Of a stretch of DNA of 64,000 bases, positions 11,519 to 22,640 are shown in pieces. A program made the position numbers and the translations under genes. Below the pieces are notes generated by a model. That model was not told where the DNA came from. It saw nothing but the letters and a program-made list of their open reading frames with translations, and ran no database searches. Position 1 is the first letter of the stretch. Each line of letters begins with the position of its first letter. The stretch lies in the UHGV virus genome UHGV-1682877; one strand, given 5' to 3'. This stretch comes from a virus.

Positions 11519-11556
11519 GCAGGTTCGATTCCTGTCTTTACGCATCTGTAAAGTAG
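11519..11556 (+). other. orphan tRNA T-arm-like element fused to hairpin
   Basis: gcaggttcgattcctgt followed by ctttacg-catc-tgtaaag stem; no 5' half found. Confidence 0.35.
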
Positions 11557-11736
11557 CCTATTGGTAAGGTATTTATTTTGTTTAAAGCTGTCTAGTAAAT
11601 CTCAATTTGAAAAATAAAAAAAATTATGATATAATATTTATAGAAAGTTGAGGTTGATTTAATGTTTTATTGGGATTCCTTTGATTGTGAAATTCAGTCT
11701 GATGAAATTGGTAGTATTACTAATCAGGAGAATGAA

Positions 11737-11890
11737 TATGAAGAAACAGAAGAACAAGAATTTATGGGCGAAAAAGAGTGGCGATGAACTTCAAGAGTAT
11801 TTGCAATTTCGCCGCAGAGGTAGTAAAGTAAAACCTAAAAAGGGCAAAGGTTCCTTTAAAAGAAAAAAGAAATTTGGATCCATAGCGTAA
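11737..11890 (+). CDS. small Lys-rich basic protein (50 aa), putative
   Basis: ATG after RBS caggaga; ends inside tRNA-Asn 5' end. Confidence 0.3.
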
Positions 11891-11952
11891 TTGGTTAGCG
11901 CAACGGACTGTTAATCCGTGGGTTGTTCGTTCAAGTCGAACTGGATCCGCCA
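11876..11952 (+). tRNA. tRNA-Asn (anticodon GTT)
   Basis: acceptor ggatcca/tggatcc; loop ctgttaa; CCA. Confidence 0.7.
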
Positions 11953-11965
11953 TATATTTTAATTA

Positions 11966-12041
11966 GCTCCTATCGACAAGTTGGTTAAGTCGCTAGCCCT
12001 TCAAGCTAGAGTCGCGGGATCGTAGCCCGCTAGGAGTACCA
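11966..12041 (+). tRNA. tRNA-Glu (anticodon TTC), atypical T-loop
   Basis: acceptor gctccta/taggagt; loop ccttcaa; T-loop atcgtag. Confidence 0.55.
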
Positions 12042-12120
12042 TAATGAAAGACACATACAGCAATTTATTTAATATTATAAAAAATGGCAGAAAATTTTTA
12101 TACAAGTGTCTTGTTTATAT

Positions 12121-12177
12121 ATTGCAGGCAGGTTAAAGCCCTGTGCGTCGCTGGTTCAAATCCAGCCTGTGATACCA
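12121..12177 (+). other. mini tRNA-like element lacking D-arm
   Basis: acceptor attgcag/ctgtgat, one hairpin, canonical T-arm gctggttcaaatccagc, CCA; only 57 nt. Confidence 0.35.
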
Positions 12178-12179
12178 TT

Positions 12180-12253
12180 GCGGAGTAGAGAAACGGTTAT
12201 CTCGCAACCCTCATAAGGTTGAGAAAGGTGGTTCGACTCCATCCTCTCGCAGA
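12180..12253 (+). tRNA. tRNA-Met (anticodon CAT; could be Ile2 or initiator)
   Basis: D-arm, anticodon stem caacc/ggttg with loop ctcataa, T-arm ggtggttcgactccatc; weak acceptor pairing. Confidence 0.5.
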
Positions 12254-12373
12254 GACATAATCAACCACCTCCACGCGGTATGTCTTGGGTAAAGCGAACG
12301 GTTGAATGATTTTGGGTACATTTGGATAATTTAGTAGCCAAAAAAACTCCATAATATAATGGAGGGATGTATA

Positions 12374-13006
12374 ATGAGTTATATTTATAGAATTATTAAT
12401 AATATAAACGATAAGGTTTATATTGGAAAAACTGCTTTTGATATTTCAAAACGATTCAAAGAGCATTGTAATGATGCTTTTAAGAAAACAGAAGAAAAAA
12501 GACCATTATATGCGGCAATGCGTAAATATGGGATAAAGCATTTTACAATAGAACAAATTGAAGAGTGCTCTGACGCTGCGGCCGTAGACAGAGAAGCCTA
12601 TTGGATTAGTATGTATTCTGCTTATGAAAAAGGATATAATGCGACTCTTGGTGGCGATGGTAAATTTTTATATGACCACAAAGCAATTGCTTTGCGACTT
12701 CAAGAACATCCATATTCTCAAGATGTAGCAAAGGAGTTTGGATGTTGTGTTGATACAGTAAGAAATATTGCTAATCAATATGGTATTTCATTATTAGTCA
12801 ATAATAGCCATAAAAAAACTATTTCTGCTTATAGTAAAAACGGTGTTTTAATAAAAACTTTTGAATCTACCTCAGAAGCAGCTCAGTGGTGTTATGATAA
12901 TCAAAAATGTGCCACTTTGCACTCTGGTGTTAGAAGCCATATAGCACAATGTGCTAATGGGATTCGTAAATCTGCATATAGTTATATATGGAAATATGAA
13001 AATTAA
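12374..13006 (+). CDS. GIY-YIG homing endonuclease
   Basis: YIYRIINNINDKVYIGKT ... R..EH GIY-YIG core; embedded in tRNA island. Confidence 0.7.
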   Translation: MSYIYRIINNINDKVYIGKTAFDISKRFKEHCNDAFKKTEEKRPLYAAMRKYGIKHFTIEQIEECSDAAAVDREAYWISMYSAYEKGYNATLGGDGKFLYDHKAIALRLQEHPYSQDVAKEFGCCVDTVRNIANQYGISLLVNNSHKKTISAYSKNGVLIKTFESTSEAAQWCYDNQKCATLHSGVRSHIAQCANGIRKSAYSYIWKYEN

Positions 13007-13039
13007 AAATATAGACTCATACAGCAAAAATTCTTTAAT

Positions 13040-13112
13040 TCTGAAATAGTCAAAAGGTTAAGACATTACCCTTGAAAAGGTAAAAATATGGGTTCGATTC
13101 CCATTTTCTGGT
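13040..13112 (+). tRNA. non-canonical tRNA with 8-nt anticodon loop (TGA or TTG anticodon)
   Basis: stem ttacc/ggtaa, loop cttgaaaa; T-arm atgggttcgattcccat; no encoded CCA. Confidence 0.45.
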
Positions 13113-13232
13113 TTAAAAGAGTCTAGCAAAAATTAAATATAGAAAGGAGAGCTGCCTTATGGATTTGGATGATATGATTTTTTCTGATGAAGTAATTACT
13201 ATTAGTGATAGATAATTATTTCTAATTTATAT

Positions 13233-13326
13233 GGAAATGTACTCAATGTTGGCAAAGAGGACGGTTTGCTAAACCGTTAGGTCTATGAAAATAGGCGAGT
13301 GGGGTCGGCACCCACCGTTTCCGCCA
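13233..13326 (+). tRNA. tRNA-Ser (anticodon GCT)
   Basis: loop ttgctaa, long variable arm, acceptor ggaaatg/cgtttcc, CCA. Confidence 0.65.
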
Positions 13327-13402
13327 AGAGAATGTAGTGTAATCTGGTAACACGCTAGCTTTGGGAGCTAGAGTCGCAGTTCAAATCTGACATTTTCTAC
13401 CA
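13327..13402 (+). tRNA. tRNA-Pro (anticodon TGG)
   Basis: acceptor agagaat/attttct, loop tttggga, CCA; abuts tRNA-Ser. Confidence 0.6.
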
Positions 13403-13627
13403 TTTAGACACATACAGCAATTTTATAATACTGATATTATAATTTGCGGCTTGCTGTGGCCCTATTAACAGCTCCATTTAATGAAAAAGTATGTCAATGA
13501 TTTATATTATCTTTTGTGAAAATTTCTTTAATATAATGAGACTTACAAGAAATTTTTTGTGTCTAGTTTTTTCTTATTTTATCCTTTCTTTCTTCTTTAT
13601 AAGATGCTTCCAGCAATAATTATTACA

Positions 13628-13735
13628 AATATATTTTTACAGGGTTTATAAAAATAGTATATTATAGCAAATATATTTCTATAAAGTTTATTAAAATACT
13701 ATATAGTAAATATATTTCTATAAGGTTTATTAATA
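13628..13735 (+). repeat. three imperfect ~35 bp tandem repeats
   Basis: repeated aaatatatttctata(a/g)(a/g)gtttatta. Confidence 0.55.
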
Positions 13736-21176: not shown

Positions 21177-21263
21177 ATTTAAGGAAAGACTTGTACAGCA
21201 AATAAAGCTTAAAAGCACTTGACTGGTAATCAAGAAGAAAATGAGTCTTGCTTAAATATTCAT

Positions 21264-21349
21264 GTGGGCGTGATGAAATAGGAAAACATATCGCACTTAA
21301 AATGCGCTGCTAATCTAGCTTGTGGGTTCGAGTCCCATCGCCCACACCA
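21264..21349 (+). tRNA. tRNA-Leu (anticodon TAA)
   Basis: acceptor gtgggcg/cgcccac, loop cttaaaa, long variable arm, CCA. Confidence 0.65.
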
Positions 21350-21350
21350 T

Positions 21351-21390
21351 CTTTAAAACTGATACTCTTTACTATTAGTTTTAAAGATAA
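21351..21390 (+). other. perfect 12 bp inverted-repeat hairpin between tRNAs
   Basis: atctttaaaact ... agttttaaagat. Confidence 0.5.
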
Positions 21391-21413
21391 CAATGAACTT
21401 GAGTTTACTGATA

Positions 21414-21491
21414 TGCGTCTGTAACTCAACTGGATAGAGTAACTGCCTTCTAAGCAGTAAGCCAGGGGTTCGAGTCCCTTCAGGCGTACCA
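21414..21491 (+). tRNA. tRNA-Arg (anticodon TCT)
   Basis: loop cttctaa, T-arm aggggttcgagtccctt, CCA. Confidence 0.65.
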
Positions 21492-21676
21492 AGCAGAACT
21501 ATAATAGGCAACAAAAGGAAATAGCTGATGTGAAAGGCATCTTGTCTTGCTGACATGACAATAAACTTTGAACGGGCGTATAATGCGTATCGTGCCTGCG
21601 GGTGTAGAGTCAGAAAAGTAGGGGAATAATTGAGGAGCAGCTATAGGTGAGGCCCCACCTCCACCTTCCTTAATAT

Positions 21677-21768
21677 GGGGCAATGGCAGAGTTTGGCTTA
21701 TTGCACTTGTCTTGAAAACAAGCAAACTAGCAATAGTTTCACTGGTTCAAATCCAGTTTGCCCCGCCA
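21677..21768 (+). tRNA. tRNA-Ser (anticodon TGA)
   Basis: acceptor ggggcaa/ttgcccc, loop cttgaaa, long variable arm, CCA. Confidence 0.65.
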
Positions 21769-21772
21769 ATAA

Positions 21773-21846
21773 GCAGGTATAGTTTAATGATAGAACTCTG
21801 GACTTCCACTCCAGCGATGCGGGTTTGATTCCCGTTACTTGCTCCA
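21773..21846 (+). tRNA. tRNA-Gly (anticodon TCC)
   Basis: loop cttccac, T-arm gcgggtttgattcccgt, CCA. Confidence 0.65.
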
Positions 21847-21909
21847 TAAAGATACTCACAGCAATTTATTTTTTATAATGGGTATAAAAAAATAAAGTAT
21901 CTTGTATTT

Positions 21910-21985
21910 GCTAACGTGGCGCAACAGGTAGCGCAGCGGCCTTGTAAACCGCAGGTTAAGAGTTCAAGTCTCTTCGTTAGCTCCA
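21910..21985 (+). tRNA. tRNA-Thr (anticodon TGT)
   Basis: acceptor gctaacg/cgttagc, loop cttgtaa, CCA. Confidence 0.65.
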
Positions 21986-21987
21986 AT

Positions 21988-22063
21988 GGTTCGCTAGTTC
22001 ATTAGGTAGAACACTTGCCTTTTAAGCAAGATGTGCTGGGTTCAAATCCCAGGCGAGCCACCA
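21988..22063 (+). tRNA. tRNA-Lys (anticodon TTT)
   Basis: loop cttttaa, T-arm ctgggttcaaatcccag, CCA. Confidence 0.7.
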
Positions 22064-22437
22064 TTAGTCTTATCATACAGACGTAAAATAAATGAGTACC
22101 CCAGATAATGCTGAACTGGGTATCCGGGTATCGGGAGAATTAGTCTGGCAACTGTTGAAGCGACGATACTGCGTGACCAGGCATAAGGGCGACCTAAGTC
22201 GTTAGCTATGGGTAAACAGGTTGATAGCCGCATAGTAAAATGTTTCCTTGCGTCATTAAAATGCAAGGCGTTATAGGAGAGACGGCGGAGCATTACTCAT
22301 CTCCACTCCTTCTGCTACGAGAAGTAGAAAATCAAGGCTTCTGAGAAATGCTAATGAGAATGGTCAACCTCTGATTAAAAAAGGACTAAAGCTAGCTTAG
22401 GTTTTAGGTTATCCTCCTTACGAGGGAAAACCTTATT
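22064..22437 (+). ncRNA. structured non-coding region, candidate novel ncRNA
   Basis: ~370 nt with no RBS-supported ORF, locally GC-richer, multiple hairpins (ccttgc/gcaagg, cttct/agaag, nested ggtt-cctc/gagg-aacc). Confidence 0.3.
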
Positions 22438-22522
22438 TGCCAGAATGTTGGAATTGGTAGACAAAGAAGTCTCAAAAACTTTCGCTTTATGCGTGCGGGT
22501 TCGAATCCCGCTTCTGGTACCA
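22438..22522 (+). tRNA. tRNA-Leu (anticodon CAA)
   Basis: acceptor gccagaa/ttctggt, loop ctcaaaa, long variable arm, T-arm gcgggttcgaatcccgc, CCA. Confidence 0.65.
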
Positions 22523-22594
22523 TTATATTTTTAAATTATTTATAAAGACCTTAACAGCAAAGACTTGGACAGTAAATCCGTAGCTTAAAGTTGC

Positions 22595-22640
22595 GCAGGT
22601 TCAAATCCTGCCCTCCACACCATATGTGGAGGTAGAGAAG
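22595..22640 (+). other. orphan tRNA T-arm plus permuted acceptor-like hairpin
   Basis: gcaggttcaaatcctgc then cctccaca-ccata-tgtggagg; no matching 5' half. Confidence 0.35.

Follow-up and report, generated by a model that had tools for sequence, protein, structure and literature searches.

YrlA RNAs (RF02553, PMC4201824) have a stem with an internal loop that joins their 5' and 3' ends, and a tRNA-like domain ordered (V)-T arm, acceptor-like hairpin, D arm, with consensus T- and D-loop nucleotides. They are encoded beside a Ro60-type gene and on its strand, with several paralogues per genome, some of which lack the tRNA-like domain (cf. YrlB). RNase P cleaves the YrlA of M. smegmatis, whose acceptor-like stem has 7 bp, and CCA is added to it; this RNA is the published precedent for a substrate of both RNase P and the CCA enzyme (Chen et al. 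2014, PMC4201824). In Thermus phage phiLo a canonical TROVE Ro60 binds host PNPase and two Y-like RNAs encoded directly upstream; these RNAs, Yrl1 and Yrl2, carry CGAA and form stem-bulge-stem hairpins (PMC12135203; PDB 9KOP, 9L5Y), and the text of that paper does not use the term 'tRNA-like'. In a P100-like Listeria phage the three most transcribed unannotated regions lie less than 2 kb upstream of an Rsr-like gene (PMC12282133).

Seven copies of a related module (E1-E7) are present in the window, by which is meant the whole 64,000-nucleotide stretch of virus genome UHGV-1682877 analysed here. As a family they share with YrlA the stem that joins the ends, the order and consensus loops of the tRNA-like domain, the same-strand setting beside a Ro60-type gene, the presence of paralogues with and without that domain, and a 7-bp acceptor-like stem as in the M. 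smegmatis RNA. Unlike YrlA, the phage RNAs carry ACAGCAA as their 5' motif, the published Ro-site motif (GNCGAAN0-1G / CGAA) being absent from them; their putative partner belongs to DUF2828/DUF7788 rather than Pfam TROVE, and they are found up to seven times, scattered among tRNA genes. Native-order tRNA-like domains occur among their inserts, as do anticodon-arm mimics standing alone, and E3 retains a whole tRNA-Tyr, CCA included. They form a widespread, previously undescribed family of small phage RNAs which imitate tRNA and are encoded beside a Ro60-like gene. E1, E3 and the other five are probably Y-RNA-like non-coding RNAs with a Ro-like protein partner, serving in tRNA/RNA surveillance or in counter-defence, and together with that protein they would constitute a viral version of the Ro/Y-RNA particle. 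The RNA elements and the evidence for each are listed below, R1 being our own model built from six relatives.

11482..11595, + strand: E1, Y-like RNA with a YrlA-type tRNA-like domain (Rfam YrlA and R1)
12048..12113, + strand: E2, short module, AAGACAC/GTGTCTT, ACAGCAA at 12057-12063 (pattern, helix detector, R1 31.1 bits)
12121..12177, + strand: D-armless 'mini-tRNA' ending ACCA, read as a chimeric tRNA remnant (L083 alignment)
13012..13126, + strand: E4, module with a native-order tRNA-like insert (ARAGORN, R1, detector)
13405..13566, + strand: E5, long module (160 nt) with non-tRNA hairpins (R1, detector)
21186..21250, + strand: E6, short module with an anticodon-stem-loop mimic as insert (R1, detector)
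21849..21904, + strand: E7, short module, AAGATAC/GTATCTT (R1, detector)
22546..22677, + strand: E3, Y-like RNA whose insert is a circularly permuted tRNA-Tyr (ARAGORN once de-permuted, R1, homologues)

The frame of the module is a helix of 6-9 bp which pairs the 5' and 3' ends. Just inside it the 5' strand carries ACAGCAA as an invariant, single-stranded bulge, and a G one nucleotide past the 3' strand also belongs to the module. The insert varies from plain hairpins in E2, E5 and E7, through an anticodon-arm mimic in E6, to tRNA-like domains in E1 (YrlA type), E4 (native order) and E3 (a whole tRNA-Tyr, circularly permuted). Exact matches to AGRCNNNNACAGCAA number six in the window, all on the + strand and all in tRNA islands; with one mismatch allowed there are 10, against about 1.5 expected. 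Across the window plus loci the module pattern has 63 matches on the + strand and none on the other, and an R1 search over 622 kb, which recovered E1, E3 and the short modules, placed 78 of 78 matches on the gene strand. Covariation is strong: the R1 alignment has 88% of its cells paired, a figure that falls to 64% on shuffling and to 35-44% with the partners slid, compensatory changes occur in 24 of 25 pairs, and the observed score was reached in 0 of 500 shuffles, all counts being taken on an alignment fitted to R1. The closing helix has 36 different sequences in the refined detector set, some with G-U pairs. Folding energy (z of -1.7, -0.9 and -2.1) is not significant alone, and support comes from the comparative data.

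The simpler inserts differ among themselves. That of E2 is A/U-rich, without a tRNA-like domain, and E2 is conserved in the sibling phage L083 at 3477-3540. E4 encloses an ARAGORN 'tRNA-???' (13040-13112) with an 8-nt anticodon loop, CTTGAAAA, and its architecture, with D, anticodon and T arms inside the module, recurs in three other loci (L024, L061, L017). E5 begins 3 nt past tRNA-Pro and is conserved in L083 at 4017-4178, whilst E7 lies between tRNA-Gly and tRNA-Thr. The insert of E6 (CTTGA-CTGGTAA-TCAAG, 21218-21234) is of a type also found in L001, L052 and L053, and E6 is the first RNA past a promoter-like site. That site would start an operon running from E6 through tRNAs, E7, further tRNAs and E3 to the Ro-like gene, whose start codon lies 57 nt past the end of E3. 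The non-tRNA features are:

21148..21176, + strand: promoter-like site, TTGAAA-17-TATAAT with TG (11/12, extended -10; consensus match only)
22735..24258, + strand: Ro60-like protein gene, Pfam DUF2828 + DUF7788, PHROG 850 'RNA-binding protein' (Pfam, PHROGs, predicted fold)
24269..24292, + strand: intrinsic-terminator-like hairpin and T-run, 11 nt past the Ro-like gene stop codon
25760-27037, + strand: RNA ligase (Pfam, PHROGs)
27040-27489, + strand: YqeY/GatB-like gene (Pfam, PHROGs)
27914-28699, + strand: metallophosphoesterase (Pfam, PHROGs)
29358-29870, + strand: AAA_33/KTI12-type P-loop kinase (Pfam, PHROGs)
29873-30415, + strand: second phosphoesterase (Pfam, PHROGs)

The DUF2828/DUF7788 protein is predicted to have a Ro60-like fold. 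Its AlphaFold2 model (pLDDT 81, pTM 0.70) comprises an alpha-helical repeat domain and a vWA domain with a DTSGS MIDAS-like motif; T308, S309 and S311 are invariant and D307 nearly so. The top 12 Foldseek matches in the PDB are all Ro60, over the full length (9KOP, E 2e-7; 1YVR; 2NVO; human 9NEN), with modest TM-scores of 0.35-0.54. The protein matches neither Pfam TROVE nor any PDB sequence, and is 34% identical to mycobacteriophage proteins annotated 'Ro-like RNA binding protein'. The Ro60 of phiLo is the best structural match to the model, and the two phages share a Ro60-type fold, here as predicted, with Y-like RNAs directly upstream; phiLo differs in its canonical TROVE protein and CGAA-bearing hairpins.

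Modules flank a DUF2828 homologue in 47 of 80 IMG/VR loci by the refined detector, whilst 25-33 of the 80, depending on the detector used, have no module within 3 kb. They also flank the gene in cultured phages: Mycobacterium phage Moostard, Bacillus phage Tsamsa, E. coli phage humlepung, Listeria phage P100, Staphylococcus phage 6ec and Vibrio phage KVP40. The module might instead be a cassette by which phage tRNA operons are processed or regulated, independent of the Ro-like protein, in which a leader/trailer helix with a conserved bulge is read by a host RNase or another phage factor so as to set cleavage, stability or timing of the bracketed tRNAs. All modules of the window indeed lie in tRNA clusters, 2-14 nt from tRNA ends, and E1 is 11 kb away from the Ro-like gene. 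Some modules moreover enclose sequences which ARAGORN calls ordinary tRNAs (Thr-TGT, Ile-GAT, Thr-GGT), so that the module might be a tRNA-precursor leader/trailer and not a stand-alone RNA. We nevertheless consider a cassette of this kind unlikely. ACAGCAA is invariant across phages of Actinobacteria, Firmicutes and Proteobacteria despite their differing RNase sets, which suggests that the phage itself encodes the reader. The association with DUF2828 is strict in both occurrence and orientation: with the RNA pattern as sole starting point, a homologue was found in 32 of 72 IMG/VR stretches, on the same strand in 32 of 32, and the refined detector places 92 modules on the gene strand against 0 on the other. 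In 6ec and Moostard three modules come right after the gene with no adjacent tRNA, and one KVP40 module overlaps the translation start of the Ro-like gene itself, its ribosome-binding site as well as its start codon.

The window has 13 matches to the T-loop consensus GGTTCRANTCC, each of them on the + strand, where 0.09 would be expected by chance. Nine fall within tRNAs to which ARAGORN assigns an anticodon and one (13091) within an ARAGORN 'tRNA-???', which leaves 11522, 12153 and 22598 outside any called tRNA. The preliminary description had picked out T-arm features at these three places (11519-11556, 12121-12177 and 22595-22640); they are real, and E1 and E3 are, as it proposed, tRNA mimics rather than decoding tRNAs, with a T-arm and a permuted acceptor-like hairpin. 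Its reading of the first and last as orphan minihelices does not hold, each being the inner domain of a Y-RNA-like element of about 115-130 nt. It had overlooked their D-arms, closing helices and ACAGCAA, as well as five further copies of the closing module and the Ro60-like gene just past E3.

E1 begins 2 nt past tRNA-Leu(TAG). Its closing helix (11482-11488 / 11588-11594, then G11595) and ACAGCAA bulge (11491-11497) frame a 5-bp T-arm (11519-11535), a 6-bp acceptor-like hairpin (11536-11553, CTTTAC/GTAAAG) and a D-arm (11556-11570). It aligns end to end with Rfam YrlA in closing stem, T-arm, acceptor-like hairpin and D-arm, at 26.6 bits; Rfam YrlA scores of 26.6 and 37.9 are far below the gathering score of 69, and E3 gives no match. 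By R1, E1 scores 55.5 bits (E 4e-8). Substitutions distinguish it from the copy in L083, and several fall in the loop of the hairpin.

E3, described earlier as lacking a full cloverleaf, holds a whole tRNA-Tyr in permuted order. Its closing helix (AGACC 22546-22550 / GGTCT 22671-22675) and ACAGCAA (22554-22560) enclose an anticodon-arm remnant (22565-22581, loop CAGUAAA), a variable arm (22582-22592), the T-arm (22595-22611), the acceptor 3' strand with A and CCA (22612-22622), a 2-nt linker, the acceptor 5' strand (22626-22632), the D-arm (22635-22651) and a second copy of the anticodon-stem 5' strand (22653-22657). The acceptor strands form a hairpin of 7-8 bp at 22612-22632, CCTCCAC-A-CCA-TA-(T)GTGGAGG. 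De-permuted in silico, E3 and its homologues in L063 and L056 are called tRNA-Tyr(GTA) by ARAGORN, with A73 and encoded CCA. R1 scores E3 at 40.2 bits. In L056, L063-L067 and L074-L078 a homologue of E3 stands at the corresponding position upstream of the DUF2828 gene, and compensatory changes are seen in the acceptor stem, the D stem and the long-range stem.

This layout resembles that of the circularly permuted tRNA genes of the red alga Cyanidioschyzon merolae, in which the 3' half lies upstream of the 5' half with a short linker joining the acceptor strands, and which give rise to working tRNAs by way of a circular intermediate that splicing endonuclease and ligase generate. No such pathway is known in bacteria or phages, and in E3, unlike C. 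merolae, the anticodon loop is interrupted by the conserved module. E3 could be a working tRNA-Tyr gene, with RNase P and 3' trimming opening its transcript within the acceptor linker to give either a two-piece chargeable tRNA or one whose anticodon loop is re-formed by cleavage and sealed with the downstream phage ligase, kinase and phosphatase. The complete cloverleaves with A73 and CCA would suit such a gene, as would the RNA ligase, P-loop kinase and phosphoesterase genes 1.5-6 kb downstream; none of the 17 tRNAs called by ARAGORN in the window is tRNA-Tyr, but the window is part of a genome and a normal tRNA-Tyr may lie elsewhere. A replaces the universal U33 in E3 and in L056, a sibling phage does without E3, E1-type relatives lack CCA and anticodon arm yet keep the module, and to our knowledge bacteria have no bulge-helix-bulge splicing pathway. 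A working tRNA-Tyr is thus very improbable. Two-piece (permuted) tmRNA likewise encodes its acceptor 5' strand downstream of T-arm, 3' strand and CCA; that identity was rejected, with Rfam tmRNA_permuted at 14.5 bits against 47, no tmRNA called by ARAGORN, and no G3-U70 pair, tag reading frame or pseudoknots.

The element at 12121-12177 stands outside the Y-like RNA system. On paper its 7-bp acceptor includes two G-U pairs and is combined with an anticodon-like arm of 5 bp and 7 nt, a variable region of 5 nt, a T-arm and a terminal ACCA, with no D-arm; it had been described as a mini-tRNA. At the equivalent position the 95-99% identical sibling L083 has an intact tRNA-Met(CAT) (3550-3622, ARAGORN), so that a tRNA remnant is the best reading of the element. 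It shares its first 11 nt with that tRNA, beyond which its sequence is unrelated; it marks the left border of a segment of 874 nt that replaces L083 sequence and includes a new tRNA-Met (12180-12251) as well as a GIY-YIG gene (12359-13006). Free-standing GIY-YIG homing endonucleases, such as T4 SegB, occur in phage tRNA clusters, and here too such a gene sits in a tRNA island where flanking tRNA sequence has been replaced. An insertion of this type explains the element, which is best taken as a chimeric remnant of a tRNA-Met at the border of a homing-endonuclease insertion. No relative of this endonuclease was found. Its anticodon, AAA, is aberrant, its Rfam tRNA score is 21.2 bits (gathering score 29), there is no other copy in IMG/VR, and a metagenome search returned the same strain only.

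Decay, which comparison with homologous loci bears out for the mini-tRNA, might be extended to all the elements, as functionless tRNA scars whose tandem partial copies arose by duplication, deletion and homing-endonuclease traffic. The mini-tRNA, carried by no independent lineage, is such a case, and E3 is laid out exactly as two adjacent partial tRNA-Tyr copies would be; E3 is also deleted in L001 and half-deleted in L073 by recombination with tRNA-Leu. Its complete absence from a 98% identical sibling indicates that single module copies are dispensable. For E1 and E3, however, decay is improbable: their stems are held by compensatory changes across lineages at about 55-70% protein identity, the conserved module frames them in every case, and the family reaches distant cultured phages.

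Returning to Y-like RNAs with a Ro-like partner, and as to processing, protein binding and biological role, we infer that the module RNAs would be transcribed within phage tRNA operons. RNase P and 3' processing of the flanking tRNAs most likely set the ends of these RNAs, the reverse of the earlier suggestion that these elements punctuate processing. The closing helix and ACAGCAA may form the docking site for the Ro60-like protein, leaving the tRNA-like insert to present a tRNA shape to tRNA-handling enzymes or tRNA-targeting nucleases. By analogy with Ro60/Y RNA/PNPase complexes and the rsr-yrlBA-rtcBA repair operon of Salmonella, the complex might, during infection, monitor or repair tRNA and other structured RNA, or serve as bait. 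A Felixounavirus homologue, Bas63 gp130, counters the Ppl defence system (PMC11482910).

The genes at 25760..30415 are of RNA-repair type, and their position in the neighbourhood suggests a possible functional tie to the module RNAs. The Salmonella operon is described as an RNA repair operon (PMC7790460). Like this locus it groups a Ro-type protein, Y-like RNAs, an RNA ligase and end-healing enzymes, and the system is linked to tRNA damage. Unlike RtcB/RtcA, the ligase of the window is an ATP-dependent RNA_ligase (PF09414) with separate kinase and phosphoesterases, its setting is a lytic-phage tRNA operon, and no RtcR-type regulator was seen in the window. Past this gene block lies a PIN-PhoH gene (31079-32350).

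The phages compared here encode a conserved, strand-specific RNA module with covarying helices, which carries tRNA-shaped inserts and is tightly linked to the gene for a protein of predicted Ro60 fold. The window belongs to an uncultured phage, of which a sibling contig measures 137.7 kb. No GenBank phage is close to it at the DNA level, a near-identity search yielding only a 40-nt match to a tRNA-Ser. It contains two tRNA islands, at 10.8–13.8 kb and 21.2–22.5 kb, and 17 tRNAs are called by ARAGORN, all on the + strand. The T-loop consensus GGTTCRANTCC occurs 13 times, again exclusively on the + strand, against an expectation of 0.09. 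Copies at 11522, 12153 and 22598 lie outside any called tRNA, as the preliminary description had claimed in reporting three orphan T-arms. Its account of their surroundings can also be read from the sequence: 11519–11553 is a T-arm followed by a 6-bp hairpin, 22595–22632 is a T-arm followed by CCTCCAC-A-CCA-UA-(U)GUGGAGG, and 12121–12177 can be drawn as a D-armless tRNA with an ACCA end. The folding energies of the three elements are unremarkable (z −1.7, −0.9 and −2.1, respectively), and the case for them must therefore come from comparison.

Two of the three T-arms lie within copies of a repeated module. Within the window, the pattern AGRCNNNNACAGCAA is found exactly six times, each time on the + strand of a tRNA island; allowing one mismatch gives 10 matches where 1.5 are expected. 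Counting E7, which carries AGAUAC, there are seven copies.

Y-like RNA modules of the window, each with a terminal closing helix, an ACAGCAA bulge and a variable insert
E1, 11482–11595, + strand: insert is a YrlA-type T-arm/hairpin/D-arm domain
E2, 12048–12113, + strand: insert is an A/U-rich or other hairpin
E4, 13012–13126, + strand: insert is a tRNA-like domain in native order
E5, 13405–13566, + strand: insert consists of A/U-rich or other hairpins
E6, 21186–21250, + strand: insert is an anticodon-arm mimic
E7, 21849–21904, + strand: insert is an A/U-rich or other hairpin
E3, 22546–22677, + strand: insert is a permuted tRNA

The modules start 2–7 nt past the upstream tRNA or end 6–14 nt ahead of the next, and are likely to be cut from the tRNA operon transcripts by tRNA-processing enzymes. 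An ARAGORN call of 'tRNA-???' at 13040–13112, with an 8-nt anticodon loop (CTTGAAAA) and an Rfam tRNA score of 53 bits, lies wholly within E4; calls of 'tRNA-Thr' or 'tRNA-Ile' are similarly internal to modules in the related loci L024 (1976–2051), L061 (661–736) and L017 (864–937). The sole detector match beyond the tRNA islands, TTCAGA ... TCTGAA at 46368–46467, has neither the AGRC consensus nor a seventh base pair and has probably arisen by chance.

The module was compared across 80 IMG/VR loci encoding homologues of the Ro-like protein. In the window and these loci, all 63 occurrences of a strict pattern fall on the gene strand and none on the other. A perfect 7-nt partner (7/7) lies downstream in 39 of 49 non-redundant motif matches, compared with 2 of 49 in the upstream control, and in 37 of the 39 the partner is followed by G. 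A loose detector, accepting any spacer and a 6-bp helix, returned 62 wrong-strand matches. The refined detector requires a 2-nt spacer and N-G past the 3′ strand, and found 92 modules on the gene strand against 0 on the opposite strand in approximately 690 kb. Among their helices, 36 distinct sequences occur and G-U pairs are used in some, as would be expected if selection acted on RNA rather than on DNA.

Owing to indels, MAFFT and RNAalifold put most of the D-arm and the acceptor-like hairpin of ten relatives out of register, and apart from the T-arm and the closing helix they yielded no more than a 3-pair stem in the D-arm region. They were replaced by R1, a covariance model built from six relatives on a structure set by hand, which gave 78 matches, all on the gene strand. 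Paired cells make up 88% of the R1 alignment, compared with 64% when shuffled and 35–44% when slid, the alignment being one fitted to the model. Compensatory changes are seen in 24 of the 25 pairs of this model-fitted alignment, and no pair of the T, acceptor-like or D helices lacks them. Two further features of single sequences, a variable hairpin ahead of the T-arm and a helix situated between the tRNA-like domain and the ACAGCAA bulge, could not be brought into one register across sequences and are omitted from R1.

The association extends to cultured phages from very different hosts, in which the module flanks the homologue of the Ro-like gene.

Modules at the Ro-like gene homologue in cultured phages
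Mycobacterium phage Moostard: three modules directly after the gene, one with a tRNA-like domain (R1, 57.7 bits; Rfam YrlA, 37.9 bits)
Bacillus phage Tsamsa: module flanking the gene
E. coli Felixounavirus humlepung: module flanking the gene
Listeria phage P100: three modules in the leader of the gene, at L085 4660–4924
Staphylococcus phage 6ec: module flanking the gene
Vibrio phage KVP40: module flanking the gene

When IMG/VR was searched with the RNA pattern alone, 72 stretches were found. A DUF2828 homologue is present in 32 of these 72, always on the same strand and usually 0.1–2 kb downstream, and at least 7 further stretches come from contigs on which the gene had already been identified.

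Ro60 and Y RNAs are conserved from bacteria to humans, and their role in microbes is poorly understood. In the window the gene concerned is the ORF at 22735–24258, which starts 57 nt past the end of E3 and encodes a protein of 507 aa matching Pfam DUF2828 and DUF7788 and PHROG 850 ('RNA-binding protein'). No Pfam TROVE match was found, and phmmer and profile searches by sequence returned no Ro60 or other PDB chain, so that the link to Ro60 required a predicted structure. Mycobacteriophage proteins annotated as 'Ro-like RNA binding protein' share 34% identity with the protein along its whole length, and homologues occur in 704 GenBank phage records. Its AlphaFold2 model (pLDDT 81, pTM 0.70) comprises an alpha-helical repeat domain followed by an alpha/beta (vWA) domain. 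When the model was compared with the PDB by Foldseek, each of the 12 best matches was a Ro60 protein, with alignments spanning the full length (E 2e-7 to 3e-4; TM 0.35–0.54); they come from Xenopus, human, Deinococcus and Thermus phage phiLo, the last at E 2e-7. A MIDAS-like motif, D-T-S-G-S, is conserved at residues 307–311. The protein is thereby predicted to have the Ro60 architecture, in which helical repeats precede a MIDAS-bearing vWA domain.

A promoter-like site, near consensus and with an extended −10, lies about 10 nt before the start of E6, and a terminator-like hairpin lies 3′ of the Ro-like gene. Their placement gives a unit in the order promoter, E6, tRNAs, E7, tRNAs, E3, Ro-like gene and terminator. 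A leader hairpin with the core CUU-GYCY-AAG (UCUCUCUU-GCCU-AAGAGAGA in the window, 22686–22705) precedes the ribosome-binding site of the Ro-like gene by some 20 nt; it is kept at the same place in most of the 80 loci (L001–L080), with or without an E3-type RNA, and its stem covaries. Between the tRNA genes, the non-coding stretches 22064–22438 and 21492–21676 have a G+C content above that of their surroundings and no Rfam match, the first showing no folding-energy signal (z −0.38). Downstream, at 25760–32350, Pfam and PHROGs identify a run of RNA-repair-type genes: an RNA ligase, a YqeY/GatB-like protein, two calcineurin-like phosphoesterases, an AAA_33/KTI12-like P-loop kinase and a PIN-PhoH protein. 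This run resembles the Salmonella Ro/Y RNA/RtcB repair operon and phage tRNA repair. Two peptidase genes, at 24313–25374 and 32415–33215 (subtilase S8 and C39-like), each encode a C-terminal S-layer-homology domain, which hints at a host with an S-layer, of the Firmicutes cell-wall type.

The closest known counterparts of the module RNAs are the YrlA RNAs, tRNA mimics which adjoin Ro60 orthologue genes and in which a T-arm and a D-arm flank a hairpin in the place of the acceptor stem (PMC4201824). In a permissive Rfam scan, 11489–11596 (E1) aligned end to end with YrlA (RF02553) through the outer stem, T-arm, acceptor-like hairpin and D-arm, scoring 26.6 bits against a gathering score of 69, and its tRNA-like domain has the order of the Rfam model. 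For E3, the T-arm/hairpin/D-arm domain was read directly and checked by ARAGORN on the de-permuted sequence. A D-arm follows the hairpin in both elements (11556–11570 in E1; 22635–22651 in E3), and a long-range closing helix encloses both: UAGACAG/CUGUCUA in E1 (11482–11595) and AGACC/GGUCU in E3 (22546–22677), with ACAGCAA on the 5′ strand directly inside. The 'permuted minihelix' of the preliminary description thus turns out to be the YrlA-type arrangement.

These elements share the tRNA-like domain of YrlA; they differ from it in having no CGAA motif, in scoring below the Rfam threshold and in having a partner from another protein family. The YrlA motif GNCGAAN0-1G, the proposed Ro60 contact near the 5′ end, is absent, and this region fails to match in the Rfam alignment; ACAGCAA is invariant in all seven window copies and in all relatives, and Rfam holds no family for a module of this kind. 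At the YrlA gathering threshold (69 bits) there is no match in the window or in 22 scanned loci, the E1 and Moostard elements (37.9 bits for the latter) falling short and E3 being unmatched. YrlA RNAs are encoded no more than about 4 kb from a Ro60 orthologue and on its strand. E3, E6 and E7 are at most 1.6 kb upstream of the Ro-like gene on the same strand, E1, E2, E4 and E5 are 9–11 kb off, and this neighbour is Ro60-like by fold only. By analogy, the E-elements may work like YrlA, with the Ro-like protein as their putative binding partner.

Moving the 3′ part of E3 (acceptor 5′ strand, D-arm and anticodon-stem 5′ strand) ahead of its 5′ part, which runs on from the anticodon loop, yields a sequence that ARAGORN recognises as a complete tRNA-Tyr(GTA) with A73 and CCA. 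The homologues in L063 and L056, among which there are compensatory differences in the acceptor, D, T and anticodon stems, give the same call. E3 is therefore a circularly permuted tRNA-Tyr, opened in the anticodon region, where it joins the conserved module, and closed at the acceptor ends by a UA linker after CCA. In a 98% identical sibling (L001), E3 is cleanly missing between the leader hairpin and tRNA-Leu(CAA) (2920–3000), and in L073 (2860–2960) a tRNA-Leu 3′ end, consisting of T-arm, acceptor and CCA, is joined to the 3′ half of an RNA of the E3 type; E3 is thus dispensable, and both cases suggest that tRNA-like elements recombine with tRNAs.

It could be imagined that E3 and its relatives serve as working genes for a permuted tRNA-Tyr. 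RNase P would open the CCA-UA linker, with cleavage predicted at 22625/22626, leaving either a two-piece chargeable tRNA held by the docking helix of the Ro-like protein, or a precursor that loses the module and has its anticodon loop sealed by the phage ligase, kinase and phosphatase. For permuted or split tRNAs, a maturation pathway of this kind would be the first beyond eukaryotes and archaea, and would provide a phage tRNA immune to anticodon-nuclease attack or repairable afterwards. We consider it very improbable: position 33 of the window copy is A, which argues against a chargeable tRNA from E3, as does the loss of E3 from the sibling. A permuted or two-piece tmRNA was also considered for E3 and rejected, the Rfam score being 14.5 bits against 47, with no ARAGORN tmRNA, no alanine identity pair (the third acceptor pair is G-C) and no tag reading frame.

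The third element, at 12121–12177, is of a different nature. It is not called by ARAGORN, scores 21.2 bits against the Rfam tRNA threshold of 29, and has no D-arm and the anticodon AAA. Its exact sequence is absent from IMG/VR and was found in metagenomes in the same strain only. The sibling L083, 95–99% identical, matches the window as far as ...TTGCAGGCAG and then has an intact tRNA-Met(CAT) followed directly by E4. At the same place the window has 874 nt (12132–13008) absent from L083, comprising the remainder of the 'mini-tRNA', a different tRNA-Met (12180–12251) and a GIY-YIG endonuclease gene (12359–13006). This segment looks like an endonuclease-driven replacement, within the tRNA island, of the one tRNA-Met that the sibling has there. 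By the criterion of the preliminary description itself, an intact tRNA at the same position in a related genome, 12121–12177 is best described as a tRNA remnant, a chimaera at a homing-endonuclease junction, whose neat fold may be partly fortuitous. Searches found no relatives of the GIY-YIG protein, and for a flanking 410-aa ORF only that of the sibling phage.

For the modules proper, the closing helix and ACAGCAA would form the docking site of the Ro-like protein, in place of the CGAA-containing site of canonical Y RNAs, and the inserts would present tRNA shapes to tRNA-handling enzymes or nucleases. In KVP40 (L086), the helix of the module at 4942–4983 (GACAUU ... ACAGCAA ... AAUGUC) takes in the DUF2828 start codon and encloses the ribosome-binding site, which suggests translational autoregulation of the gene by its own protein through the docking site.

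Three published systems offer parallels, and the RNA motif is defined in none of these papers. The Ro60 of phiLo binds upstream Y-like RNAs and host PNPase (PMC12135203). In the P100-like Listeria phage CKA15, the most abundant unannotated transcripts come from within 2 kb upstream of the gene for an Rsr-like protein, which is packaged (PMC12282133). Bas63 gp130 is a Ro60-like protein adjoining a tRNA cluster which counters the Ppl defence system, and 'possible Y RNAs' have been suggested for this phage (PMC11482910). The module RNAs are candidates both for the Listeria phage transcripts and for the RNAs of Bas63. P100 itself has an unannotated stretch of approximately 550 nt behind a strong promoter (L085 3415–4000), comparable to the G+C-richer gaps of the window, and a stretch of this type, rather than the modules, may be the largest hyper-expressed region of CKA15.

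A second, sequence-distinct Ro-like/Y-like pair is thus common in large tRNA-carrying phages, including tractable ones: Felix O1-like, P100/A511-like, KVP40, Staphylococcus 6ec and mycobacteriophages. It offers a precise RNA motif, closing helix and ACAGCAA, that is open to mutation, together with a catalogue of inserts shaped like tRNA. Module RNAs lie in many of the gaps left unannotated in phage tRNA clusters, and some 'tRNA-???' calls sit inside modules, which matters for the annotation of tRNA repertoires. ARAGORN also calls 'tRNA-Pyl' with the anticodon CTA in related phages (L017 755–825, L024 1280–1353 and L027 259–347); these are possible amber suppressors, and might indicate stop-codon recoding.
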